NCBI GenBank assembly: GCA_000989525.1
Contig: LBON01000006.1
Span: 7,914 to 71,913 of the forward strand
Length of the DNA: 64,000 nt
Direction of reading: 5' to 3'
Origin: a candidate division TM6 bacterium GW2011_GWF2_32_72
Lineage (GTDB): Bacteria; Babelota; Babeliae; Babelales; GWF2-32-72
Shown here: piece after piece, positions 2,572 through 51,225 of the stretch
How positions within the stretch are numbered: the first letter of the stretch is position 1
How the letters are laid out: each line of letters starts with the position of its first letter
Translations under genes and position numbers: made by a program
Notes under the pieces: generated by a model
The model's database searches: none
Seen by the model: the letters and a program-made list of their open reading frames with translations, nothing else
What the model was told of the DNA's origin: nothing

Positions 2572-3267
2572 ATGAATAATTTACTAAAAAAACTAATAAT
2601 CATTGTTGCGCTAATTCTTTGCGTTATATTAATCAAAAAAAATATTTGGAAAAAAAATCCCGCAATCCATGACCCAAAACAAATTGAAAAAATATTTCTC
2701 CAAATAATATATTCATCTGATACAAAAATTTCTGCCGAAACAAAAAAAATCCTCGATGCCTGTGGTGTACAAAAAAATCTTAAAATGAATGGAATAATAG
2801 ATGAAAATTCACATGAATACCCTCACCTTCTACAACAGGTAATGTCGCACAAAACAGCCAAATGTTACATAAAAAAAATAAGCGATCAAGTAGGATACGG
2901 GTGCTTTGCTGCAGAAACAATCAAAGCCTATGAACTAGTCAGTGAATATACAGGATTGATAAAAACATCCGTGACTGATACACAATACAACTGGGAAATT
3001 CCATTGATGTTTTTTTACAATAACATGCCTTATTCTCTTTATATGGATGGAAAAAATTACGGTAACTTTATGCGTTTTGTTAATGCTTCAAAAAATCCAA
3101 ACATAGATGTCAGATATATTTTTGATAAATCTGGGTATCCCCATGTTCTTTACATTGCAAATAAAAACATAATTAAAGGGGAACAGCTTCTTGTAAGTTA
3201 TGGCAAAAAATATTGGGAACAAAAAGATCGCAAGTTTGTTGAATTAAACAGGTTTGATGTTTATTAA
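2572..3267 (+). CDS. SET-domain protein (lysine methyltransferase-like) with N-terminal membrane anchor/signal
   Basis: ORF 231 aa with N-terminal hydrophobic LLKKLIIIVALILCVILI. SET core: GYGCFAAETIKAYELVSEYTGLI ... MDGKNYGNFMRFVNASKNPN ... YIANKNIIKGEQLLVSYGKKYW. This fits the GxG..EYxG / RFxNHSCxPN / GEELxxDY pattern, with NHS replaced by NAS. Confidence 0.8.
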   Translation: MNNLLKKLIIIVALILCVILIKKNIWKKNPAIHDPKQIEKIFLQIIYSSDTKISAETKKILDACGVQKNLKMNGIIDENSHEYPHLLQQVMSHKTAKCYIKKISDQVGYGCFAAETIKAYELVSEYTGLIKTSVTDTQYNWEIPLMFFYNNMPYSLYMDGKNYGNFMRFVNASKNPNIDVRYIFDKSGYPHVLYIANKNIIKGEQLLVSYGKKYWEQKDRKFVELNRFDVY

Positions 3268-4269: not shown

Positions 4270-6318
4270 TTAAACATTGTCGCTCAAAATAAAACCGTCA
4301 CAAATAAAATTAGACCTAAATTCAAAATTTAAATTGTTTTCTGCTATACCATTACCAAAAGAAATGCCTTCTGTAGGTAGCAAGCCTTCTGCGTAAATTG
4401 AAGGTAAATTTTTTAACCTTAATGTGCCATTTGTCAAACGCAATCCCGTTGTTGTTGAATACAAAGTTGCATTATTTAAAGTTAAAATAGATGAAGAATC
4501 AGCCATTACAAATAAATCTCTATTAGCCGTTTGGGGATCGTAAGAAAATGTTGTGCTGCATTCGAAAATTAATTCTGAATCTGATCCCAATTTCAACCCA
4601 CCACTGTTTTGTAAAACGAATTTATGCGAACCCTGAACTTTTACGGTACCGTAGATTTCAAGATTTGCGATTGGCCAAACAAGATCGTCAGAAAGTGCCA
4701 AAACGCAATTTTGCAAAGTCACCGTTGCAGAATTATCAACACAGTAAAATCGGTTAGACTGAACATTGTTTAAATAAATATTTTCTAGTTTAAGCCCTTT
4801 TGAGTCTGTCACCACAATTACGCCATTTATTAAATTTAAAATACTGTTGTTGCCATTTATTCCACAACCACCTTTAAAAGTTACACTTTTTTGTAGATCT
4901 AAATTATTATTTAAATTTAAATAAATATTTTCAAACTTATAAAAATCTGTGATATCCCAAGTTTTTACATATTTTCCGTCAGATTCACCACTGGCAACAA
5001 ATTTTCCATTATGAGAAAATCCAACAGTCCTTACCTTCTGATTAATTTCTTTATTACTCGTTAAATTCAATGTTGTATTTGATGAATTAAAACAAAAAAA
5101 TTTAAGTTCGCTTCCACCTGTTAATGTATCCTGCCCTAAAACAAGCCTGCTGCCATCTAAAGACCAAAAAACATCGTTAACTATTGAAGCTCCAACGTTT
5201 ACACTTACTGCGCTAGAAAGCGTTGTTCCATTAAAATAAACAACATTAAGCCTGTTAGTTCCAGCAGCCAAAGCTGTGGCTATTAAATTTCCAGAAGATC
5301 TATATGAAATTCCGCCAACTGTTCCCGCCATAACTAAAGAATTAACCTGTGTTAAAACGGTTCCATTAAAACTATAAACATAAAGGCTTAAGCCTTCGCC
5401 CATTACTAAATAATTATTTGAAGGGCTCCAGGCTAAACTATGCATCCCAGGAGTTGCACCTGCAACAGGGTCTGTATCAACTGTAGAAACAAATGATCCA
5501 CTAGAATTCATACTGTAAACAATCAAATTGTTTGTGACATGTTTTGTTGCTGCGGCTAGATAATTTCCGTCTGAAGACCAAGCAACACAGTTTGCATCTG
5601 CCCCAATATCTTTGCCTTCAACAAAAGTTAATGCTGGCCCTGCAGGGTTAAATCTCATTACAAAAACTTCTGAACTATTAATAACAGCCTGACTGTTTGA
5701 TTTAGCAGCAACGGCAATTAAATAATCATTTGGATGACAAGCAACATCATAAATATCCGAGTTTGTATCATAGTAAGCAACTAAATTAAGTACACCCGTA
5801 GAACTGACTGAAAAAACTTTAATTTCTTGATTGTCACCGCCTCTTCCAATTGTCACTAAATAATTGTCATCAAACATCCAATCAAGCCCCCAAACTTCTT
5901 GACCACTTAAATAGGAAGATTTTTGAGTTAGATAGGCAGGAAATGTTGCTGGACCATACAAAGCAGAAATAGTTGGTGCCAGGTCCAACATTTTTTGAGA
6001 ACCAAAACCAACAATAGATCCAAGAGATTTTATTTCTGTATCACCCTGCAAAATTAAATCGCGTGCTAAATTTAAAGTTCCACCATTTAATGAAATATCT
6101 CCAAAAACAGGCATAAAAGAATTAAATGTGCAAGTTGCACCACCTGTATCTAAAGAAAAACCAGAATCCATACCTAAAAAACCAGAAATAACATTTTCTG
6201 CATCCACGGGAAATGCTGGAGTTGAACTATTGCGAATTACAGCAGATGTTGAACCAACGGTTATGGGAATAAGAGTTTGAGTTGTAAATATAAGGAGGAA
6301 TAATATTAATTTTTTCAT
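4270..6318 (-). CDS. Secreted beta-helix + 7-bladed propeller family protein, paralog 3
   Basis: ORF 682 aa with signal peptide MKKLILFLLIFTTQTLIPITVGS. N module: GFSLDTGGATCTFNSFMPVFGDISLNGGTLNLARDL. Seven blades (LDWMFDDNYLV, VACHPNDYLIA, VAWSSDGNYLA, LAWSPSNNYLV, ISYRSSGNLIA, VFWSLDGSRLV, VGFSHNGKFVA). C module: FSYDPQTANRDLFVMADSSSILTLNNATLYSTTTGLRLTNGTL. Confidence 0.9.
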   Translation of the reverse strand: MKKLILFLLIFTTQTLIPITVGSTSAVIRNSSTPAFPVDAENVISGFLGMDSGFSLDTGGATCTFNSFMPVFGDISLNGGTLNLARDLILQGDTEIKSLGSIVGFGSQKMLDLAPTISALYGPATFPAYLTQKSSYLSGQEVWGLDWMFDDNYLVTIGRGGDNQEIKVFSVSSTGVLNLVAYYDTNSDIYDVACHPNDYLIAVAAKSNSQAVINSSEVFVMRFNPAGPALTFVEGKDIGADANCVAWSSDGNYLAAATKHVTNNLIVYSMNSSGSFVSTVDTDPVAGATPGMHSLAWSPSNNYLVMGEGLSLYVYSFNGTVLTQVNSLVMAGTVGGISYRSSGNLIATALAAGTNRLNVVYFNGTTLSSAVSVNVGASIVNDVFWSLDGSRLVLGQDTLTGGSELKFFCFNSSNTTLNLTSNKEINQKVRTVGFSHNGKFVASGESDGKYVKTWDITDFYKFENIYLNLNNNLDLQKSVTFKGGCGINGNNSILNLINGVIVVTDSKGLKLENIYLNNVQSNRFYCVDNSATVTLQNCVLALSDDLVWPIANLEIYGTVKVQGSHKFVLQNSGGLKLGSDSELIFECSTTFSYDPQTANRDLFVMADSSSILTLNNATLYSTTTGLRLTNGTLRLKNLPSIYAEGLLPTEGISFGNGIAENNLNFEFRSNFICDGFILSDNV

Positions 6319-7400
6319 TATAAACCTACATTGTCATTCAAAATTAAACCATAAAATTCTAAGTTTGCAGCACCAATTACTCTCAAATTTCCAGCTTCTG
6401 TGCCGTTGCCCAAAGAAATAGATTCAGTTTCTACCTCACCTTCTGCAAACAGATTTGAGTTGTTAGAAACAAGCAGCGTGCCTTTGGTCAAACGCAAGCC
6501 AGTTGTTGTTGAATGCAATGTTCCACCGTTAAGTTCCAAAATTGATGTCTTATCGGTAAAATCTAATAAATCTCTACTGTTTGAAACAGGAGCATAAGAA
6601 AAAGTTACATTTGAATCTAAAATCAAAGATGAGTACGAATTGATTGTAGATATTTGATTAGTTGAATAAATAAATTTACCACTTCCTGTTAACTTAAGAT
6701 CATTATCTACAGTAAATTTACCTACTGAAAAATCTAATGAATCAGAAAAAACCAAATCGACGTCTTGAAATTTAATAATAGATGTAGATGCTGCACATAT
6801 AATTCTATTATTCAAATTATTTAGATTTTTTATTTTTATATTTTTAAGAGTCAATGTTGAATTAGTGCCAACCGCAATAGCTCCTTCATTTTGCAAATCA
6901 ATACAGTGTCCACCGCCATCTAAAAGACTGTTGCCTGCAAATAAAATTGCACTTTGCAAAGATATGTCTGAATTCAAAAAGGTATTTATATTAGACCACT
7001 GATAAACTTGGATTCCAACAGCATTTACGTCACCCACCAAATATGTTTGAGAGGTAGATAAATCTAAAATATGCCCATTGCCAATTATATTTCCCATAAA
7101 ACTCATGGTGCCATTTTTTTCAAAAATAAAATCTGTAAGTAACGTTAGCGAACCACCTTTTAAATTTACAGTTCCACCCACTGGAAAAAAAGAACTAAAA
7201 TTACATGAAGTTGCAACATCAGCAAAAATAAAACCATTTCCCATAGATGCAAAACTAAGAATTGAGTTGGCATTAGTTGGAAAATTAATTTGGATCTCCC
7301 TGCTAACCCCAACATCTGAACCAATAGTAAGAGAACGAATTTGAGTTGGAATTATTATAAAAAAAAGTATTGTTAGTATCCTTTTTAACCAATTCATCAT
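6318..7400 (-). CDS. Secreted beta-helix family protein, paralog 4 (minimal member: N module + C module, no propeller)
   Basis: ORF 360 aa with signal peptide and TIGS motif. CNFSSFFPVGGTVNLKGGSLTLLTDF and GNGHILDL run straight into GGGHCIDLQNEGAIAV ... FSYAPVSNSRDLLDFTDKTSILELNGGTLHSTTTGLRLTKGTL. Its stop overlaps the start of paralog 3 by 1 nt. Confidence 0.9.
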   Translation of the reverse strand: MMNWLKRILTILFFIIIPTQIRSLTIGSDVGVSREIQINFPTNANSILSFASMGNGFIFADVATSCNFSSFFPVGGTVNLKGGSLTLLTDFIFEKNGTMSFMGNIIGNGHILDLSTSQTYLVGDVNAVGIQVYQWSNINTFLNSDISLQSAILFAGNSLLDGGGHCIDLQNEGAIAVGTNSTLTLKNIKIKNLNNLNNRIICAASTSIIKFQDVDLVFSDSLDFSVGKFTVDNDLKLTGSGKFIYSTNQISTINSYSSLILDSNVTFSYAPVSNSRDLLDFTDKTSILELNGGTLHSTTTGLRLTKGTLLVSNNSNLFAEGEVETESISLGNGTEAGNLRVIGAANLEFYGLILNDNVGL

Positions 7401-9475
7401 ATCTCCACATTCTGACTAGCTAGAAAACCAAAGATATTCAAATTAGCTTTACCATTTATGTTTAAATTATCTGATTCAATACCATTTCCAAAAATAATCC
7501 CATTGTTTGCCCAGGTTCCTGCAGAAATTAAATCGGATGTTTGATTAATATTTAAAGATCCTTTTGTTAACTGCAATCCATGATTAGAAACATAAAATTT
7601 TCCACCATTTAAACTTAGAACAGAAGTTCCATCTTCCATTTCTAATAATTGATTTGAATTTATCAATGGAGCAAAACTTAAAGTCACATTAGCATCTAAA
7701 AATAATTCTGAATTTGAATAAATTTTTCCAGATCCATTAAATAACCAGGTCCATTTTGAATCACCAGTAATTTTATTTTTTTGAACAATATCTATAGCAC
7801 CCTCTGAGAAAGTAGCCTCGTTTGAAACCAAAACTATTGCATTGCTCAAAATAAGCTTAGATGATTCATCTAATCCCCTTATATTAGTTCCTGCAATATT
7901 TATTAAATTGAGATTTTTTAAACACAAACAAGAATCAGCTGAAATTATTAAGCTTCCAGAGACCCCTAAATCAAGAGAATATCCCTGACCATCTATACAT
8001 GAAATCCCGTAGCAAGTTAATGGTTTTTTAAGTTCAACATTTGAATTCAATTTCAAGCACAAATCTGAAATATAAGAAGATGGCGAGGCAATACCATATT
8101 GATAAATCATAATTTTTGAACCTACATTGTTTGAAACCGCAATACCAATAAAATTATCATCGTGTGACCAACGAACACCTAAAACATCAGCTGAGACTAA
8201 AACATCATCAAGTAGTGTTAAACTTGGAATACCTGCATTAAATGAATAAAGTTTTAGTTCTAGAATACCCGTTGATTGCACAACAGCAATTTCATTTCCA
8301 TCTGAATTCCAATGAATCCCGTTTACCCTTGAAGCACCAACATCTTTTGCTAATAATTCTGTCAAAGAATTTGTTACAGGATTAAAAGAAATAATGCCAA
8401 GTCTAACAACACCAACGTCAAGACCAACAGCTATATAATCACTAGTTGGATGATAATCTAACGAATAAACTGTACTAATAAATGTTCTATAATTATCCGT
8501 ATAAACCAAATTGGTTCCATCAAATGTGCTGATGTCAACATATTGACCGTTGGCTACAAATATTCTTGTTCCATCGTTATTCCAACAAATTGTTTCTTTT
8601 TGACCTGGTATGGAATAAATATAAACAGTATCAAAATCTCCAAAAATACCGCTTAAAATTGCACTGACACCAACATTAGTTTCTGCTGTTCCATATGCAT
8701 AAGCCAAATAATTTCCATCTGGTCGCCAGGCAATACTGATCACACCAGGTAAAGTTTTGCCATCAACATAAGTTAAAGATTCTTCAGCAAAATTAAAGTT
8801 AAGAGTAAAAACTTCATTTCCAAAAGTTGAACCTTCTGATGTGTCATCTATACAAGCTGCCAAGATATAACTTGAAGGATGCCAACGAACACTATTTACT
8901 TTTGTGGGTGTAGAAAAAGATGCTATTTCTACAAGTTCTTCATTTTGAAATTCGAAAATTTTAATTAAACCATAAAAAAAAGTTGCCGAATAATCCAAGC
9001 CTACCGCTACATACTTATTGTCATAGGACCAATCTATACTACGAACATTTACAGTCTCTGTATCTTGATCAACAAAATTCAATGCTCCTGCAACACTCGG
9101 CAAATTACAATCTAAAAACGTTATAGTTGAAGCTAACTCCAAAGTATGATCATTCCCTATAACGTTACCAAGTGTCATTGTAGCTGGTTCTTTGAGTTTT
9201 AAATCTCTATTTAATGTTAAAGTCCCGGCATTCAAATTAAATACAGAGCCCGTTATTGGAAAATGAGAATCATAAGTACATGCAACGCTCGAATCTGCAA
9301 GGGAAAATCCACCATCTAACAAAGCAAAACCAGTAACAGAATTGGTTGTGCCTGAAAAGTTTTGAAGCGAGCTCACAAAAGTTACCGCTACATCAGAACC
9401 TACTGTCACACCAAACAATGGTAAACAGAAGTTGAACAATAAAAGAATAAAAGAAAAACTTTTACTCTTTATCAT
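7397..9475 (-). CDS. Secreted beta-helix + 7-bladed propeller family protein, paralog 5
   Basis: ORF 692 aa with signal peptide and TVGS motif. CTYDSHFPITGSVFNLNAGTLTLNRDL. Blades IDWSYDNKYVA, VRWHPSSYILA, IAWRPDGNYLA, ICWNNDGTRIF, LDYHPTSDYIA, IHWNSDGNEIA, VRWSHDDNFIG. C module: SFAPLINSNQLLEMEDGTSVLSLNGGKFY..LQLTKGSL. ATGA overlap with paralog 4. Confidence 0.9.
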   Translation of the reverse strand: MIKSKSFSFILLLFNFCLPLFGVTVGSDVAVTFVSSLQNFSGTTNSVTGFALLDGGFSLADSSVACTYDSHFPITGSVFNLNAGTLTLNRDLKLKEPATMTLGNVIGNDHTLELASTITFLDCNLPSVAGALNFVDQDTETVNVRSIDWSYDNKYVAVGLDYSATFFYGLIKIFEFQNEELVEIASFSTPTKVNSVRWHPSSYILAACIDDTSEGSTFGNEVFTLNFNFAEESLTYVDGKTLPGVISIAWRPDGNYLAYAYGTAETNVGVSAILSGIFGDFDTVYIYSIPGQKETICWNNDGTRIFVANGQYVDISTFDGTNLVYTDNYRTFISTVYSLDYHPTSDYIAVGLDVGVVRLGIISFNPVTNSLTELLAKDVGASRVNGIHWNSDGNEIAVVQSTGILELKLYSFNAGIPSLTLLDDVLVSADVLGVRWSHDDNFIGIAVSNNVGSKIMIYQYGIASPSSYISDLCLKLNSNVELKKPLTCYGISCIDGQGYSLDLGVSGSLIISADSCLCLKNLNLINIAGTNIRGLDESSKLILSNAIVLVSNEATFSEGAIDIVQKNKITGDSKWTWLFNGSGKIYSNSELFLDANVTLSFAPLINSNQLLEMEDGTSVLSLNGGKFYVSNHGLQLTKGSLNINQTSDLISAGTWANNGIIFGNGIESDNLNINGKANLNIFGFLASQNVEI

Positions 9476-11775
9476 TTGCCTTCTCCTGAAGATATAAATG
9501 AATAATTAATTGTACCAAGAGGGTGGGTGGAGCCAATAAGTTCCGCGGCATCAATAAATGTTAAATTTAAATTGTCACCCAACATAAGAACGCCCGATTG
9601 CATATTCATAGTATTTGTTAAAACTAATTCAGTATCATCATTCATATAAATAACAGAAGTAGAAACAGGCATTTTTAAAGAAGAAGGTAAAATGTTTTTG
9701 TAATTCAAAATACCAGAATCAACTGTCAAGCAAACACCTGGGTTTATTCTAAAAATTAAATCTTCTTCTGCATTTGAATTACCAAAAGAAATTCCCTGTA
9801 ATGTTGAAGATATCTCTGGATCATAAGAAGATGCAAAAATAGAGTCTTCTTTAAACAGCAATGTGCCCTTTGTAAGTTCTAAAGGTACAGCAGCATATAA
9901 AGATGCCCCCATAAACTTTAATCTTGCTGAAGAATCTTCCAACTGAAATAGATTGCCTGCTTTGGATAAAGGATCGTAAGAAAACGTAAATCCAGCATCT
10001 AATTCTATTTTTGTTTCATGCAAAACAGTACTTGTTTGGTTTGATTGATAAATAAAACTATAATCTCCAGTAAAGAAAACATAATTCTTAAACCAAATAG
10101 CACCTGTATCAAAATTAAAATCTTGAATTTGATTCCAATTTACATCTTTAAGAGTCAAAACTCCTGTATCTAAACATGTAATATTTGAATCTGAAATATT
10201 TTTTACAACAATATTATCTAAAGTTAATTTAGAATTAGACCAAACAATCAAACTGCCCGTTTCTGTAAGATCTAAAATGTGTCCATTGCCAAAAAAGCTA
10301 CAATCTCCAACAAATACAATTGGATTTCGAAGTTGTAAATTTTCACTAAGCCTCATATGCACATTGCTAAAAACATATTGTGGGATACTTGTGTAAATAG
10401 CGATAGCAGGACTTACTTCTTCTTTAGTACTTAAAGAATTTCCTGCTACTAAATAATCATTAGAATTAGACCAACGCACAGAACCCACATCTGCTGATAT
10501 TTTTCTTTGCGCGACTAAACTAAGCGTTGGATTATCAGCATCAAAATTAAATAATGAAAGTTCCAAATAATTTTTATTAAACTGTTGCCCAATTACTAAA
10601 CTGCAACAAATTGGATTCCATGCAACAGCATTAACTGCTGATGTTCCAACATCATAAACACAGGCTTGAGTTAAACTATTTGCAACCGAATCAAACTCAT
10701 AAATTCTTAATTTATTATTTCCCGAACTCAAACCGACTGCAATATATGTACCAGAAGGAGCCCAATCAAGTGAACCTCCATCGGCACCAATATTTATTCC
10801 TGCTGTACTTGTTATAGCTGCTCCATCAAAATAAAAAATCATAAGGTCTGTAGCCGAACCCGAATCTTCTGCCATGCAAACTGCCAAATAATCGCCCGAA
10901 AAATCCCAACAAACACCTTTATTAGCAACAGCTCTGCTCCCACTAATATCGTATGTAACTCCTGTTCCAAAAACACCTGCTGTCATGGGATAAATAATTA
11001 ACTCACTATCTGAAGTTTGTTTTACACAAGCCAAATAAGTTCCTGCTTTATTCCAAGCAACTCCACGCACAGTATCTGTAAAATTTTTAGAATCTATTTG
11101 TGTAAATGAATTATCCAATGAATCAAATTCATACGTAAAAATTTCATCACCAGAACCGGCTTCTGTAGAAATAGCCAAAATATATTCTGCAGGACTCCAT
11201 CTAACACTTGTAACAACTTTACTCAAAGCAAAAGATGCTACTTCATTTAAAGAACCATTCAAAAATGAATATACCTTAACACCATTTGAAGAATTGAATC
11301 CAACAGCCACATATTTGTCATTGTGAGAAAAATCCAAAGTTAAAACGTCTGCCAAGGTTTCTTTAGATGAAATCAAGTTCAATCGATTATTTACAACCAT
11401 ATCACCCTGCAAGCATGTAATAGAAGTTGTTAAATCAATAAGATAACCATTTCCAGAAATGCTCCCCATAGACTGGAAAGAACAAATATTTGCCAAATTA
11501 AAATCACGTGAAAGCATGAAATGTCCACCATTGAAATTAATACTTCCAGAAGGCGGAAAAAAACTATCATATGTACAATAACAATCTGAATCTTCTAATG
11601 AAAAACCAGCTTCAACAACAGTAAAACCACCTATTGTATTTTGTTGATATTTAGAAAAATTAATTGGTGATGTTGCTCGGAAAACATTGACGTTTGAACC
11701 AAGTTTTATGGCATTTATTTGAGAAAAAACAAACACACAAAAAAGAAATAAATATTTTTTATTGAAAATCTTCAT
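9472..11775 (-). CDS. Secreted beta-helix + 7-bladed propeller family protein, paralog 6 (with C-terminal extension)
   Basis: Track ORF of 768 aa starts at TTG 11778. ATG at 11775 with GGAG 7 nt upstream is more likely. KLGS motif, CTYDSFFPPSGSINFNGGHFMLSRDF, seven blades (e.g. VAWNKAGTYLA, LDWAPSGTYIA), then FSYDPLSKAGNLFQLEDSSARLKFMGASLY..LELTKGTL and a roughly 90-aa tail shared with paralogs 2 and 7. Confidence 0.9.
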   Translation of the reverse strand: MKIFNKKYLFLFCVFVFSQINAIKLGSNVNVFRATSPINFSKYQQNTIGGFTVVEAGFSLEDSDCYCTYDSFFPPSGSINFNGGHFMLSRDFNLANICSFQSMGSISGNGYLIDLTTSITCLQGDMVVNNRLNLISSKETLADVLTLDFSHNDKYVAVGFNSSNGVKVYSFLNGSLNEVASFALSKVVTSVRWSPAEYILAISTEAGSGDEIFTYEFDSLDNSFTQIDSKNFTDTVRGVAWNKAGTYLACVKQTSDSELIIYPMTAGVFGTGVTYDISGSRAVANKGVCWDFSGDYLAVCMAEDSGSATDLMIFYFDGAAITSTAGINIGADGGSLDWAPSGTYIAVGLSSGNNKLRIYEFDSVANSLTQACVYDVGTSAVNAVAWNPICCSLVIGQQFNKNYLELSLFNFDADNPTLSLVAQRKISADVGSVRWSNSNDYLVAGNSLSTKEEVSPAIAIYTSIPQYVFSNVHMRLSENLQLRNPIVFVGDCSFFGNGHILDLTETGSLIVWSNSKLTLDNIVVKNISDSNITCLDTGVLTLKDVNWNQIQDFNFDTGAIWFKNYVFFTGDYSFIYQSNQTSTVLHETKIELDAGFTFSYDPLSKAGNLFQLEDSSARLKFMGASLYAAVPLELTKGTLLFKEDSIFASSYDPEISSTLQGISFGNSNAEEDLIFRINPGVCLTVDSGILNYKNILPSSLKMPVSTSVIYMNDDTELVLTNTMNMQSGVLMLGDNLNLTFIDAAELIGSTHPLGTINYSFISSGEGK

Positions 11776-11778
11776 CAA

Positions 11779-32075: not shown

Positions 32076-32837
32076 TCAGAACATGTCGGGCGTTACACCA
32101 GTATCTTTTGTTTCTTCTGGTTTTGTTTCTGGTTGTTTAGTTTCTTCTGTTGTTGGTGTTACTGATTGTACGTCAGCGGCAAGCTCTTTTGTTTGTGCTG
32201 CAGGTTGTGTAGTCGATTGTTTTTCGACTTCTGTTGGCACACCTTCTAAGACATCTTTGACTTCTGATTCTACTGCTGCATCTTTAGCTTCAACAACATC
32301 CTCTTCTGCCGGCGTTGTACCCTTTACTTTCTTTGGTGCCATTTTATATGCTATCCCTGCTGCACCAACAGTTGCCCCACTGACCACAAGAACCACTCCC
32401 GTTTTCCATTTATTTTCTTTAGCCCATATCCAGAGATTCTTCATTTTTTTTGCAAAGAAACCAGGGTCTTTTTGTGCAGCATTTAAAGTAGATGCATCAA
32501 AAACAATTAATTTTTCTATATGTGCTTTTGCAAGAAGCCCTCCAAGCAATTCTCTTTTTTGCTCCGGTTTTAATTTATCCCAATTGTTTAATTTTTCATT
32601 GTACTTTTTTTTAACGGCATCTGTTTTAAATTTCCCAATAGCTTCTTTTAATGGAATTAATAAGTTATCCTTAATGTTAGTAAGTTCTTTTTCATCTATA
32701 TTGCTATATGTCATATTCCAATCGATTTGTCCGGCAGCTGTTAAGTTTTTTGGCATCACACCCTTTGAAGTTACGCCTTCTACGGCTACGGAACCAAGCG
32801 CCAGCATCATTATGCTTAATATGGTGAGTTTTTTCAT
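32076..32837 (-). CDS. Secreted/membrane-anchored protein with T/E/P-rich C-terminal tail, unknown function
   Basis: ORF 253 aa with signal peptide MKKLTILSIMMLALGSVAVEG, internal TM TGVVLVVSGATVGAAGIAY and a low-complexity acidic tail. The fully overlapping plus-strand ORF 32083-32877 is low-complexity antisense and was rejected. Confidence 0.75.
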   Translation of the reverse strand: MKKLTILSIMMLALGSVAVEGVTSKGVMPKNLTAAGQIDWNMTYSNIDEKELTNIKDNLLIPLKEAIGKFKTDAVKKKYNEKLNNWDKLKPEQKRELLGGLLAKAHIEKLIVFDASTLNAAQKDPGFFAKKMKNLWIWAKENKWKTGVVLVVSGATVGAAGIAYKMAPKKVKGTTPAEEDVVEAKDAAVESEVKDVLEGVPTEVEKQSTTQPAAQTKELAADVQSVTPTTEETKQPETKPEETKDTGVTPDMF

Positions 32838-33094
32838 CCCCTTCTCCTTCTATTTGTTAGGGAGGTTAAACATTTAACTCATTACTATTTAATTAAAAAG
32901 CTAGCAATATTATAAAAACAAAGTCAATAATTTGTTTTCTATTCTCAGCGCTTTTTATTTAAACTAACTGGTAAAACTTAAAAATACTTGGAATGCAGGG
33001 GCTTTATTTTTCTGATAGACTAAATAATGTTCTTTTTTGTAGGGTTGATTTTAATTAAAAAAAACCGATTATTAGCTAAAAAATAAGGAAAAAA

Positions 33095-40868: not shown

Positions 40869-42065
40869 TCAAAAGTTTATATCGTACATTTGCAAAATTG
40901 GCATATAAATAGCCAACATCAAAATTAAAATTAATCCGCCTAATAACAACAAAAAACACGGCAAAAGCAAATTGGTTATCGTTTTTAAACCAGATTCTAG
41001 TTGTTGTTGATATCTAACACTTATCTTTAAAAGCTGAGCACCTAACTTTTCTGATTCCTCCCCCACTTTAACAGACAATAATAAACCACTGTCAAATAAA
41101 AACGGCGAAACAACAAGGGCCTGATATAAAGAATAACCCTCAATAATCATTGAGTTAATTCGAAGAATTTCTGATTTAAAAAAAGGGCTTTTAAGTGAAG
41201 TTAAAAATAAATTTAAAGCTTGAGAAATGGGAAGCCCTGTCACTAATAAAGATCCCAAAGAACTTGTAAATAAAACTACAAAATAATTTTTTAAAACTCT
41301 CCCCAAAAAAGGCAGCCTTAAGCACAATTTTTCAATAAAACAAACTACAAAATTAATGCGTAAAATAATAAAACATAACAAAAAAACAAAAATTAAACCG
41401 ATCCAAAAATAAACATTAACACCTTCGATCAAAAAATCACTTAAAGCAAAAACAATTTTACTTAAAAGTGGCAACTTGTCAGACGATTCACCTAACATTT
41501 GTTTAAACCTGGGTACAATAAAAATCAAAATAAGAAATACAATAAATATAAAAAAAATGGCAGAAATTATAGGCATAATAAACACGGATCTTAGCTGCCG
41601 CAAAAATTTATTCCCTATATTTTTATAATCACATAATTGACGCAATGCATCTGCAAGGCGCCCGGACTCATGTCCAGTTTTAACAAGCACAACAGAAACA
41701 TCATCAAATACGTCTTCATGCTTACCAAGAGCTGAACTCAATGCGCCACCCCTTTTGACAAAACAAAATAGATGAAGAACAACACCATGAAAAAATTTAT
41801 TTTTAATTTGCTGACTTAAAACATTTAAAGCATCTAATAAAAGAACACCAGAATCCAATAAAAAAGCCAGTTCAGAAAAAAAATCTAATTTAATTTGTTG
41901 ATTAATTTTTTTAAAACCGCGCCTTGAAAATATATATTCAAAATCTAATAACACAATTCCTTGATCTAGTAACATTTGATTTAAATCTTCTTCAGAATCT
42001 GCCATTAAAAAACCACCTAACTCGATCTCATTTGAGTCAACACCCTTCCAACTAAAATATGGCAT
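40869..42065 (-). CDS. pilC: GspF/PilC-family inner-membrane platform protein (type IV pilus / type II secretion)
   Basis: ORF 398 aa with two GspF-type repeats: ALSSALGKHEDVFDDVSVVLVKTGHESGRLADAL and SLYQALVVSPFLFDSGLLLSVKVGEESEKLGAQL. Three TM segments, and the C-terminus is typical of PilC. Confidence 0.85.
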   Translation of the reverse strand: MPYFSWKGVDSNEIELGGFLMADSEEDLNQMLLDQGIVLLDFEYIFSRRGFKKINQQIKLDFFSELAFLLDSGVLLLDALNVLSQQIKNKFFHGVVLHLFCFVKRGGALSSALGKHEDVFDDVSVVLVKTGHESGRLADALRQLCDYKNIGNKFLRQLRSVFIMPIISAIFFIFIVFLILIFIVPRFKQMLGESSDKLPLLSKIVFALSDFLIEGVNVYFWIGLIFVFLLCFIILRINFVVCFIEKLCLRLPFLGRVLKNYFVVLFTSSLGSLLVTGLPISQALNLFLTSLKSPFFKSEILRINSMIIEGYSLYQALVVSPFLFDSGLLLSVKVGEESEKLGAQLLKISVRYQQQLESGLKTITNLLLPCFLLLLGGLILILMLAIYMPILQMYDINF

Positions 42066-49283: not shown

Positions 49284-49370
49284 TGGTACCAGGGGTCGGA
49301 ATCGAACCGACATGATGTCACCACCGCGAGATTTTGAGTCTCGTGCGTCTACCAATTTCGCCACCCTGGC
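49284..49370 (-). tRNA. tRNA-Leu (anticodon CAA)
   Basis: Reverse complement: GCCAGGGTGGCGAAATTGGTAGACGCACGAGACTCAAAATCTCG-(long variable arm)-GTCGGTTCGATTCCGAC-CCCTGGT-ACCA. The anticodon loop is CTCAAAA. Confidence 0.92.
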
Positions 49371-49429: not shown

Positions 49430-49466
49430 CAAAAAAAAGAGGATCTAAAATAAATCCTCTTTTTTA
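49430..49466. terminator. Rho-independent terminator (symmetric) downstream of the proline-rich gene
   Basis: aaaaaaaa-gaggat-ctaaaataa-atcctc-tttttt (stem 49439-49444 / 49454-49459), 18 nt past the stop at 49484 on the minus strand. Confidence 0.7.
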
Positions 49467-49483
49467 CGTAAAGCTTATAAATT

Positions 49484-50542
49484 TTAATTCAAAAATTCTT
49501 TATTTAAGGTTGATACAACTTTAGTCTTATCAGACTCATTTTTGTGCTCATTTATACGCTTAATAATATCACCTTTTAAAAGGCGTTGTCCTTTAAAACG
49601 ATTTGCTAGCTGTCCAGCCTGAATAGGCTTTAAACCTGTATCAACAAGAGCTACTTTAATATCCGCAACATCTTCATCTGTAAGCGGCGCAACTGTTGGC
49701 TGAGTTTGTGATGTTGCCACTGGTTGTTTTACACTTGGCTCAGTTTTCACTTCCGATTTTGGAACTACAACAGCCTTTTGCTCCGGTGCAGTTTCTGTCT
49801 TGGTCCCTGCCGGAGTTTTTCTTAGAGGCCTTTTAAGATCGGCTACAGACACGGTGAAATCTTGTTCTTGAGATTTTTTTGGAACGACTTCAACCTTATT
49901 AGACCCTTGCAAAGCTTTTCTTCGTTCTTGTTTCTCTTGAGCTTCCCTAAGTTCCTTCATCATATCTGACTCTGAACCTGCAGCAGTCGGAGATTTTGGT
50001 GTTACTGCCTTTGAAGGAGTCACATCTGTTTTGGCACCTACAATTGAAGCAGGCAAACCTTTTCCTGGAGGAGGTGGTGGAGGTGGCGGTGTACCAACTT
50101 TTGAACCAGTCGAAGCTTTTCCTGAAGGAGGTGGTGGAGGAGCTTGCGGTACAATACCTGATTTTGGCATCGCTGGTGGTTGTGGAGCAGTGTTTGAAAC
50201 AGTCGAACCTTTTTGAGAACCTGCTCCTGGCGGTGATAGAGGTGGCGGTACAATACCCGTTTTTGGCATCACTGCTGGACTCACTTTTGGAACAACTGAA
50301 CTTGATGTCTCTAGCCGGCAAGATGTACAAGCAGAAGGCTCTTCTCCGTTTGCAATTTTTAAATTATCCGTCAAATAATTTAAATTTGATTTCAAAATAG
50401 ACAATTTAGGTTGGAGTTCAAGATTGGAATTTTGCTTTTTTAAACTATCTTCTATCTTGCTTAATTCAGAATTAATTTGGGCAAAATCGGCATTCAAAAA
50501 TAAAAACCAACTAAATAAACAACTAATTATAATTATTCTCAC
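49484..50542 (-). CDS. Secreted proline-rich protein (three polyproline tracts), paralogous N-terminus to the WH2 protein
   Basis: ORF 352 aa with signal peptide MRIIIISCLFSWFLFLNA. MPKTGIVPPPLSPPGAG, MPKSGIVPQAPPPPPSGK, GTPPPPPPPPGKGLP, then SDMMKELREAQEKQERRKAL. Four overlapping track ORFs (49947-50400, both strands) are artefacts of the GC-rich repeat. Confidence 0.88.
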   Translation of the reverse strand: MRIIIISCLFSWFLFLNADFAQINSELSKIEDSLKKQNSNLELQPKLSILKSNLNYLTDNLKIANGEEPSACTSCRLETSSSVVPKVSPAVMPKTGIVPPPLSPPGAGSQKGSTVSNTAPQPPAMPKSGIVPQAPPPPPSGKASTGSKVGTPPPPPPPPGKGLPASIVGAKTDVTPSKAVTPKSPTAAGSESDMMKELREAQEKQERRKALQGSNKVEVVPKKSQEQDFTVSVADLKRPLRKTPAGTKTETAPEQKAVVVPKSEVKTEPSVKQPVATSQTQPTVAPLTDEDVADIKVALVDTGLKPIQAGQLANRFKGQRLLKGDIIKRINEHKNESDKTKVVSTLNKEFLN

Positions 50543-50562: not shown

Positions 50563-51138
50563 CTAATCATCATTCCATCCACCTTCATCTTCATCATCTT
50601 CATCCGTAGCAGGAATTAACCACTTACGTCTTTCAGCTAACCTCTTTTCCAAAATTTCCTCTTTTGTTTCTTTTGCTGAAACAACTGGCTTCTCATTGAG
50701 TTTACGATCCTCAACTTTCTTCAAAGTTGTACCCTTTTTAATTTCTTTCATAAGATCTGCTCTTGTTCCAGTTTTTTCTGAAGAAGGCTTCTCATTGAGT
50801 TTACGATCCTCAACTTTCTTCAAAGTTGTACCTTTTTTAATTTCATCCATAAGATCGACGTTATCTGAAGAAATCTTCTCGCTGGCTTTCTGAGCTTCAA
50901 TAGGTTTTAAGTTCCCAACACAACATTTCGGAGTTCCACCCTCTGTTATGCTCACAACATCCGATAAAAAATTTGCACGAACTTCTAATTTTTTTCTCTC
51001 ACTAGATTCAGGAAGTTCTGCAACTTGCAACTTCAATTTGTTTAAAGTTTCTTTAATGTCGCTAGAAACTGCTACGGCCAAACAACTACCGGAAAACAAA
51101 CTCAAACAACATAAAAACAAATATCTCATAAAAAACAA
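50563..51138 (-). CDS. Secreted protein with two tandem WH2 motifs + C-like helix + acidic Trp tail (WCA-like, actin/Arp2/3-targeting candidate)
   Basis: ORF 191 aa with signal peptide MFFMRYLFLCCLSLFSGSCLA. NVDLMDEIKKGTTLKKVEDRKLNEKP (nt 50809-50862) and RADLMKEIKKGTTLKKVEDRKLNEKP (nt 50710-50763) form a 99-nt direct repeat. C-terminus: EEILEKRLAERRKWLIPATDEDDEDEGGWNDD. Confidence 0.88.
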   Translation of the reverse strand: MFFMRYLFLCCLSLFSGSCLAVAVSSDIKETLNKLKLQVAELPESSERKKLEVRANFLSDVVSITEGGTPKCCVGNLKPIEAQKASEKISSDNVDLMDEIKKGTTLKKVEDRKLNEKPSSEKTGTRADLMKEIKKGTTLKKVEDRKLNEKPVVSAKETKEEILEKRLAERRKWLIPATDEDDEDEGGWNDD

Positions 51139-51225
51139 TCTCCTTTAAAAATATTTTTCATACAAAATAAATTTCTAAATCACGTTATTAACTTGTCAAA
51201 AAAAAATCAATTATTTCGCTAAATA

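Follow-up and report, generated by a model that had tools for sequence, protein, structure and literature searches.

Within a 64,000-nucleotide (nt) stretch of contig LBON01000006.1, from the candidate division TM6 bacterium GW2011_GWF2_32_72 (Dependentiae), lies a short minus-strand gene, here called p1. We refer to the whole stretch as the window. The product of p1 begins with a predicted signal peptide and a small N-terminal module, followed by two WH2 motifs, a basic central or connector (C) helix and an acidic (A) C-terminus with a single tryptophan. It is identical to protein UR26_C0006G0042 of the same organism, whose public record reads 'hypothetical protein'; a WH2 Pfam match for it is already precomputed in databases. 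An original prediction, made from the letters of the DNA, had proposed that p1 mimics the WASP-family nucleation-promoting factors (NPFs) of the Arp2/3 complex. The open reading frame (ORF) on which that proposal rested is real, its translation is exactly as described, and its elements are all present: signal peptide, N-domain (approximately 65 residues), two WH2 motifs, basic helix and acidic end with one Trp. The mechanical ORF covers 50563..51138 (-), from a TTG codon at 51138 to a TAG stop codon at 50563-50565. Translation most likely begins at the ATG at 51129, because the Shine-Dalgarno site AAAGGAGA is spaced 10 nt from this ATG and 1 nt from the TTG; the resulting product of 188 amino acids matches the NCBI record. 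Residue numbers given here run to 191, with Trp188 the fourth residue from the end.

The two WH2 units of p1, DLMDEIKKGTTLKKVEDRKLNEKP and DLMKEIKKGTTLKKVEDRKLNEKP, are near-identical and share the form DLM(D/K)EIKKGTTLKKVEDRKLNEKP. A check against Pfam WH2 (PF02205) yielded 38.3 bits over two stretches, compared with a gathering cut-off of 23.1 (E = 9.2e-10). We also built a WH2 hidden Markov model (HMM) from 28 units of proteins other than p1; among 839 six-frame ORFs of the window, p1 is its sole match, with a score for each motif (Table 1). The pattern L96-M97-x-x-I100 ... L106-K-K-V109 of the first unit recurs in the second as L129-M130-x-x-I133 ... L139-K-K-V142, and both units, in the L-M-x-x-I helix positions as well as in LKKV, align residue for residue with the WH2 motifs of N-WASP. 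Helices in an AlphaFold2 (AF2) model begin at residues 94 and 127, the positions of the WH2 N-helices. The tandem repeat that had been read from the DNA is confirmed: a direct repeat with a period of 99 nt, of which a 71-nt core (50687-50757 and 50786-50856) is 96% identical. The core copies differ at three positions, one synonymous and two in a two-base D/K codon change, and their similarity points to recent duplication or gene conversion. One contig from a re-assembly (L006), whose positions 1-154 map to window positions 50563-50716, ends exactly inside the second WH2 repeat. Since this assembly breaks within it, the 71-nt repeat appears to disturb short-read assembly, and the true number of WH2 copies may exceed two, if an additional copy has been collapsed.

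Does p1 also possess the elements by which WASP proteins engage the Arp2/3 complex? The basic C stretch EEILEKRLAERRKWLI and the terminal ATDEDDEDEGGWNDD are both found in p1 as had been claimed. In the C helix, L164, L168, A169, E170, R171, K173 and L175 fit the LxxxLAERxKx[IL] signature of WASP tails. A phmmer search of p1 against all PDB sequences places N-WASP at the top (3m3n_W, E = 1e-6). With 6uhc_H, the N-WASP chain in the cryo-EM structure of NPF-bound Arp2/3, residues 90-191 of p1 are collinear over N-WASP residues 399-496, which constitute the entire V-V-C-A region. The C-A region has no Pfam model and was therefore tested separately, with a profile of its own made from ten eukaryotic WASP C-A tails. 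Residues 148-191 of p1 alone score 15.7 bits against this profile, a value reached by 0 of 2000 composition-preserving shuffles (maximum 10.8, mean -0.9, standard deviation 2.6). Among the 169 window ORFs of at least 60 amino acids, only p1 matches the CA profile, and only p1 ends in an acidic, Trp-containing C-terminus.

We aligned nine W-W-C-A sequences: five eukaryotic WASP-type C-termini, two proteins from bacterial contigs, one short fragment and p1. Invariant columns are I13, L19, G49 and L52 in the WH2 motifs, L80 in the C helix and W101, the tryptophan; p1 also carries the L...LAER.K.[IL] signature in this alignment. The W-(W)-C-A order, joined by short linkers, occupies the extreme C-terminus of p1. 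The single-sequence AF2 model has an overall predicted local distance difference test score (pLDDT) of 57, with helices at both WH2 N-helices and at residues 159-171; a low pLDDT is as expected for a largely disordered protein with WH2, C and A elements (WCA). The mimicry of a WASP-type WH2-WH2-C-A tail is thus supported by the Pfam WH2 match, by the collinear alignment with N-WASP and by a C-A region that is significant alone. The C-terminal 100 residues of p1 would then be a functional copy of the N-WASP-type W-W-C-A module, and we consider it reasonably likely that p1 is a constitutively active WCA-type Arp2/3 NPF, exported through Sec as an effector of an intracellular Dependentiae bacterium.

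Could p1 instead act on actin without the Arp2/3 complex? Like Spire, Cobl, VopL/VopF, TARP, RavH or thymosin-beta, it might use its WH2 motifs to nucleate or sequester actin, the acidic tail being incidental. Two high-scoring WH2 motifs are present, possibly doubled to four if the cysteine-bearing N-terminal module dimerises; Spire is among the weak PDB matches of p1 (3ue5_B, E = 0.19), and bacterial tandem-WH2 nucleators are well documented (PMC13481308). However, known tandem-WH2 nucleators contain three or more WH2 motifs or a dimerisation domain and have no CA, whereas the C-A region of p1 is WASP-like on its own, at the extreme C-terminus and with canonical spacing. The closest relatives of p1 are moreover WASP tails, not Spire or Cobl. 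We regard an Arp2/3-independent action of p1 as improbable.

An exhaustive phmmer search of p1 against 1.84 billion representatives retrieved 17 proteins at E <= 1e-3. All 17 cover only residues ~72-191 of p1, and most alignments end at the match's own C-terminus. The best full-length matches are WASP proteins: P0004 (Wiskott-Aldrich syndrome protein of the beetle Zophobas morio), P0005 and P0014 contain WH1, PBD and WH2 by Pfam. P0009 resembles an N-terminally truncated WASP, and several other matches are short WCA fragments. P0003, P0015 and P0016 are of a different kind. They combine a signal- or anchor-like hydrophobic N-terminal segment with multiple WH2 motifs, for which Pfam WH2 exceeds its threshold, and their acidic tails contain Trp (DDDEWND, SDEDWEEE and DDQSDWE, respectively). 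Two of these tails, those of P0003 and P0015, match the CA profile as well (18.3 and 15.1 bits), while that of P0016 scores 3.4 bits. Like p1, they are encoded between bacterial housekeeping genes, here on metagenomic contigs (Table 1). Unlike p1, they are longer (374-574 amino acids), carry proline-rich stretches in the same chain and have N-terminal domains unrelated to that of p1; P0016 differs further in its about six WH2-like units and its weak C region. No lineage-specific protein is common to their contigs and the window. By these likenesses, p1 is one of several independent predicted bacterial proteins in which a WH2-(C)-A tail is combined with a signal or anchor segment.

p1 has no proline-rich tract of its own, but it is not isolated: a poly-proline element is located in the neighbouring gene, p2, which starts with a GTG 20 nt downstream of the p1 stop codon. 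Because of this short gap, the AGGAG site before p2 and the strong terminator after it, we read p1 and p2 as a bicistronic, co-transcribed unit in which p1 comes first. The predicted p2 protein starts with a signal peptide, which a helical hairpin and a C-x-x-C pair follow. Next comes a long proline-rich stretch that is disordered; beyond it lie a helix (residues 193-209) and, at the C-terminus, a small helical domain (residues 289-351, positions 49487-49678, AF2 pLDDT approximately 80). The proline tracts of p2, PPPLSPP, PPPPP and PPPPPPPP-GKGLP, are encoded at about 50063-50293. p2 matches neither Pfam nor the WH2 HMM nor the CA profile, and a Foldseek search of its C-terminal domain against PDB found nothing at E <= 0.001. 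Apparent degenerate WH2 or C remnants in p2 (DMMKEL..., ERRKAL, ADLKRPLRKT) were rejected, as they match neither the WH2 HMM nor the CA HMM, and a tail-to-tail alignment of p2 with p1 is only marginal (reached by 14 of 3000 shuffles).

The N-terminal module of p1 comprises approximately 55 amino acids with helices at residues 26-40 and 46-65 (AF2 pLDDT 75-82). Residues 24-82 of p1 and 20-80 of p2 yield a gapless local alignment over 50 residues with a score of 58, reached by none of 3000 shuffles (24.9 +/- 4.8). By this measure the N-modules of p1 and p2 are homologous. The window contains no further paralogue of the module, and no match to the p1 N-domain came up in 1.84 billion representatives. 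With its vicinal cysteines in p1 and the C-x-x-C pair in p2, the shared module is plausibly a pairing or clustering device. In WASP, formin and ActA-type proteins, poly-proline tracts of the kind seen in p2 are ligands of profilin, SH3 or EVH1 domains. In WASP, RickA, P0003, P0015 and P0016 a proline-rich stretch and WCA stand in one chain; here they are split between p1 and p2. Probably p2 is the proline-rich arm of a WASP-like machine, brought together with p1 by pairing of the N-modules or by targeting to the same place. We also considered P0015 as a fused p2 and p1, and rejected this: its N-terminal similarity to p2 has an E-value of 0.063 and is reached by 45 of 1000 shuffles.

A more far-reaching proposal can be built on this arrangement, and we put it forward tentatively, as one that has more chance of failing than of holding. 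p1 and p2 would form a split, Sec-exported WASP-like machine, with a W-W-C-A arm in p1 and a poly-proline arm in p2, paired or co-targeted by their N-modules. Inside a protist host, the two arms would cooperate in assembling branched actin on the bacterium or on its vacuole. The machine would serve Dependentiae as an Arp2/3-based entry or motility system and, with P0003, P0015 and P0016, would belong to an unrecognised, polyphyletic set of WCA proteins with signal peptides in uncultured bacteria.

How would p1 reach a host cell? Its signal peptide is probably cleaved by signal peptidase I between AVA and VSS. A lipobox-like SGS-C at Cys19 offers a weaker alternative, by which lipoprotein or surface anchoring is possible. 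The original prediction regarded a Sec-type signal as an oddity for such a protein. In this phylum it is usual, candidate effectors bearing Sec signals, and almost every orphan or eukaryote-like protein of the window has a signal-like N-terminus, among them a SET-domain protein, three WD40 propellers and two paralogues of ~1100 amino acids. In the cultured Chromulinavorax destructans, signal peptides are found on 44% of coding sequences and on 78% of ankyrin-repeat proteins, and the study suggests that delivery proceeds by Sec-dependent secretion and by vesicles (PMC6561590). A type II secretion system belongs to the core genome of TM6 (PMC4776705). The window itself encodes a GspF/PilC-type platform protein (Table 1), consistent with the type II secretion or type IV pilus machinery reported as core to TM6 (PMC4776705).

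Once its signal peptide is cleaved, p1 has no recognisable membrane or surface anchor, and it might therefore serve as a diffusible decoy. Soluble WCA would titrate or mislocalise Arp2/3 and G-actin and so paralyse phagocytosis, phagosome maturation or host motility. Over-expressed free WCA or WA fragments are classical dominant-negative reagents for Arp2/3-dependent processes, and the biochemical requirements of a decoy are the same as those of an exported NPF. The present data do not discriminate between the two. Nevertheless, the shared N-module and the operon partner with its poly-proline suggest an assembled, localised machine, and the lipobox-like SGS-C leaves surface anchoring possible. 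A decoy function seems to us rather unlikely.

p1 might also have no role in the host, being either a recently acquired or decaying fragment of eukaryotic origin or a protein of the periplasm or envelope whose likeness to WCA is unused. It is an orphan gene for which no orthologues were found, its Sec signal alone would deliver no protein to a host, and the unit adjoins a tRNA gene, a typical site of foreign DNA. On the other hand, its frame is intact, it has a strong ribosome-binding site, an operon partner and a terminator, and all functional residues of the two WH2 motifs, C and A are kept. A decaying fragment would not keep an in-frame bacterial signal peptide on a complete module, and the GC content of the gene (35.6%) is close to that of the window (32.1%). 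We consider the absence of a host role very unlikely. tRNA genes are common integration sites, and the p1-p2 operon may sit on acquired DNA, given the adjoining tRNA-Leu(CAA).

The gene content leaves no doubt that the window is bacterial: it includes genes for PolA, a HIT protein, a metallophosphatase, LeuRS, HisRS, UvrB, ATP synthase alpha, Lon and the T2SS-F/PilC-type protein as well as five tRNAs; PolA, HIT, tRNA-Leu and LeuRS flank p1 and p2. Might the W-W-C-A module, otherwise typical of eukaryotes, be a protist WASP fragment misjoined into a bacterial contig or a contaminant? One assembly does break inside the repeat. The 9-kb neighbourhood, however, which comprises the 1116-amino-acid gene, p1, p2, HIT, the metallophosphatase and PolA, has zero mismatches in two other assemblies, an ENA groundwater assembly and a Logan assembly of another run. 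p1 moreover has a signal peptide, a Shine-Dalgarno site, no introns and a bacterial-like GC content, and its paralogous N-module lies next door. Because the neighbourhood is identical in separate assemblies and its context is bacterial, we rejected eukaryotic contamination or a chimera, which we hold to be exceedingly improbable.

Table 1. Positions of p1, its elements and other features of the window, with the genes of three proteins on other contigs (L001 to L004).
Feature	Position	Strand	Evidence and remarks
p1, signal peptide, N-module, WH2, WH2, C, A	50563..51129	(-)	188-aa precursor; ORF, ATG start with ribosome-binding site
Shine-Dalgarno site of p1, AAAGGAGA	51139..51146	(-)	read from sequence
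Predicted p1 signal peptide, MRYLFLCCLSLFSGSCLAVA	51070..51129	(-)	sequence and hydropathy
p1 N-terminal module, predicted helical hairpin and vicinal Cys72-Cys73	50869..51069	(-)	AF2; homologous to p2 N-module
WH2 motif 1, SDNVDLMDEIKKGTTLKKVEDRKL	50797..50868	(-)	Pfam WH2; WH2 HMM 37.2 bits; aligned to first N-WASP WH2
WH2 motif 2, TRADLMKEIKKGTTLKKVEDRKL	50698..50766	(-)	best Pfam stretch 123-146; WH2 HMM 35.5 bits; 99-nt repeat
C (central/connector) region, amphipathic basic helix KEEILEKRLAERRKWLIPA	50608..50664	(-)	alignments, CA profile, AF2 helix 159-171
A (acidic) region, TDEDDEDEGGWNDD	50566..50607	(-)	net charge -9; lone Trp188, fourth from C-terminus
p2, predicted secreted partner, 352 aa	49484..50542	(-)	ORF; GTG start, AGGAG ribosome-binding site 8 nt upstream
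Intrinsic terminator, hairpin and U-tract	49430..49468	(-)	RNA fold -16.1 kcal/mol, z = -3.8, 0/200 shuffles
tRNA-Leu(CAA), directly downstream of p1-p2 terminator	49284..49370	(-)	ARAGORN
GspF/PilC-type inner-membrane platform protein	40869-42065	(-)	Pfam T2SSF, 129.6 bits
Predicted secreted orphan, 1116 aa	51469-54819	(+)	no Pfam domain; divergent from WH2 operon
Predicted secreted orphan, 1166 aa	37277-40777	(+)	no Pfam domain
P0003 gene	L001 94-1818		contig neighbours HflX, UvrD, TrpRS, PGM, ankyrin protein
P0015 gene	L002 10001-11125		contig neighbours GyrA, DprA, RuvB, YebC
P0016 gene	L003 10001-11134 (= L004 8091-9224)		contig neighbours ThyX, FtsW, MurD, IleRS

The orphans of 1116 and 1166 amino acids are full-length paralogues, with 40% identity over 1108 residues. 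Elsewhere in the window, a gene at 2572-3267 (+) encodes a SET-domain protein of 231 amino acids (Pfam SET, 63.8 bits) whose N-terminal segment is strongly hydrophobic; it is a candidate eukaryote-like effector of the lysine-methyltransferase type. At 4270-11778 (-) lie three tandem WD40 beta-propeller proteins (682, 692 and 768 amino acids) and an orphan of 360 amino acids, all with signal-like N-termini; an orphan of 1258 amino acids follows. This group has the look of a family of secreted, eukaryote-like repeat proteins that has expanded. Two ORFs of approximately 255 amino acids, at 32076-32837 (-) and 32083-32877 (+), overlap almost fully on opposite strands.

Which known system does p1 resemble most? 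With the VVCA region of N-WASP and WASP it shares two tandem WH2 motifs (L-[LM]-x-x-I and LKKV), similar WH2-WH2 and WH2-C linkers, the L...LAER.K.[IL] C helix and an acidic tail whose only Trp stands 3-4 residues before the end. In contrast to WASP, p1 has no WH1/EVH1, no GBD/CRIB and no basic region (WH2 is its only Pfam domain), and hence neither autoinhibition nor control by Cdc42 or PIP2; its proline-rich region is on the separate p2, a bacterial Sec signal peptide and an unrelated helical N-module of 55 amino acids stand at its N-terminus, and its C helix departs from that of WASP at the first two hydrophobic positions. Because WH1 and GBD are missing, p1 is not, on its domain content, a member of the WASP protein family. 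Its predicted function comes nearest to that of the N-WASP VVCA module; among bacterial proteins, RickA of Rickettsia is the nearest.

Like p1, RickA comes from an obligate intracellular bacterium. RickA carries its proline-rich region in the same polypeptide. It is, as p1 appears to be, an NPF mimic of WH2, C and A elements, and it activates Arp2/3 directly (PMC11077975; PMC13481308). Unlike p1, which is about one third of its size, RickA bears no Sec signal, and its N-terminal region is large (~95 amino acid repeat) and includes a G-actin-binding domain (PMC11077975). RickA is not among the 17 matches of p1 at E <= 1e-3, and nothing outside the module points to common descent; judged by this comparison, p1 is not a RickA orthologue. 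ActA of Listeria starts with a Sec signal peptide, as p1 does. ActA and BimA of Burkholderia thailandensis are surface or secreted proteins that activate Arp2/3 directly by actin-binding and acidic or CA-like elements (PMC13481308), as p1 is predicted to do. ActA, however, is membrane-anchored in a monoderm, with its elements in a different order and EVH1-binding FPPPP repeats in cis, and BimA is a trimeric autotransporter, whereas p1 lacks both an anchor and an autotransporter domain. Vibrio VopL/VopF, Chlamydia TARP and Legionella RavH share with p1 the use of eukaryote-like WH2 motifs for actin binding (PMC13481308). They differ in that they nucleate without Arp2/3, have no C-A tail, are substrates of type III or type IV secretion systems and contain three or more WH2(-like) units or a dimerisation or lipid-binding domain, compared with only two WH2 motifs in p1.

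In vitro, activation of Arp2/3 requires WCA, and WCA suffices for it; dimeric WCA is more potent (PMC7274804). Each known WCA element is kept in p1 and no autoinhibitory domain is present, from which we infer an active NPF; without WH1, GBD or another autoinhibitory domain, it should be constitutively active. After removal of the signal peptide, p1 would cross the outer membrane, likely by the phylum-core type II secretion system or, alternatively, in vesicles. In the host cytoplasm each WH2 motif would bind one actin monomer, the helices with L96/M97/I100 and L129/M130/I133 lying in the cleft of actin subdomains 1/3, followed by LKKV. The amphipathic C helix (L164, L168, R171, L175) would dock onto Arp2 and/or Arp3. 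In known complexes, two NPFs bind per Arp2/3 complex and the hydrophobic face of the C helix touches Arp2 and Arp3 (PMC7274804). Trp188 in the acidic tail would enter the basic pockets of ArpC1 and Arp3, in which the conserved Trp of NPFs is held between Arg and Pro (PMC7274804). The Arp2/3 complex would thus be pushed to its active conformation and seed branched actin filaments. If the N-modules pair, potency would increase and the poly-proline arm would be recruited. For the cell, the outcome may be uptake, actin-based motility or remodelling around the bacterium.

Several observations weigh against this mechanism. Both p1 and p2 are orphans: a word-indexed search of 5.8 billion clusters returned self-matches only, and pattern scans of GTDB genomes, JGI metagenomes and IMG/VR revealed no homologue of either. 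Conservation is therefore unusable as functional evidence for p1. A Sec signal alone brings a protein of a diderm only to the periplasm, and the p1 sequence has no recognisable secretion signal for the step beyond. The Trp of p1 is preceded by Gly-Gly rather than by acidic residues. In addition, N-WASP I463/V464, the two N-terminal hydrophobic contact positions of its C helix, align to K160/E161 of p1. In N-WASP these two belong to the four hydrophobic C-helix residues that face the Arps (PMC7274804). The C helix of p1 may be shorter than the canonical one, with I163 as a possible substitute.

On balance, p1 probably serves as an effector that hijacks host actin, and none appears to have been proposed before for its phylum; among the top-ranked results of a combined literature search, no paper joins Dependentiae to WH2, WASP, Arp2/3 or NPFs. 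As a pathogen-encoded WCA-type Arp2/3 activator it would fall into a known class (RickA, ActA, BimA, p78/83). What is unusual in p1 is its occurrence in a new phylum with protist hosts, its Sec-type export and a proline-rich arm on a paralogous, co-transcribed partner.

What would such a protein mean for the Dependentiae? This widespread phylum, also known as TM6, consists of obligate parasites of protists, and we know of no Dependentiae host-manipulation protein with a demonstrated function. WCA mimicry has until now been known from Rickettsia, Listeria, Burkholderia and baculoviruses. Candidate effectors of Dependentiae have so far been mostly ankyrin-repeat proteins and orphans (PMC6561590). 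p1 gives a precise hypothesis, namely that Dependentiae hijack the host Arp2/3 complex. If true, WCA mimicry reaches a new phylum, protist hosts and export of the Sec or type II secretion kind. The 100-residue module of p1 would represent a natural minimal NPF, and the N-module it shares with a poly-proline partner would offer a natural experiment on how the arms of WASP cooperate across separate chains. Finally, P0003, P0015 and P0016, being encoded on unrelated bacterial contigs, suggest that the WH2-(C)-A strategy is commoner in uncultured bacteria than the literature indicates.

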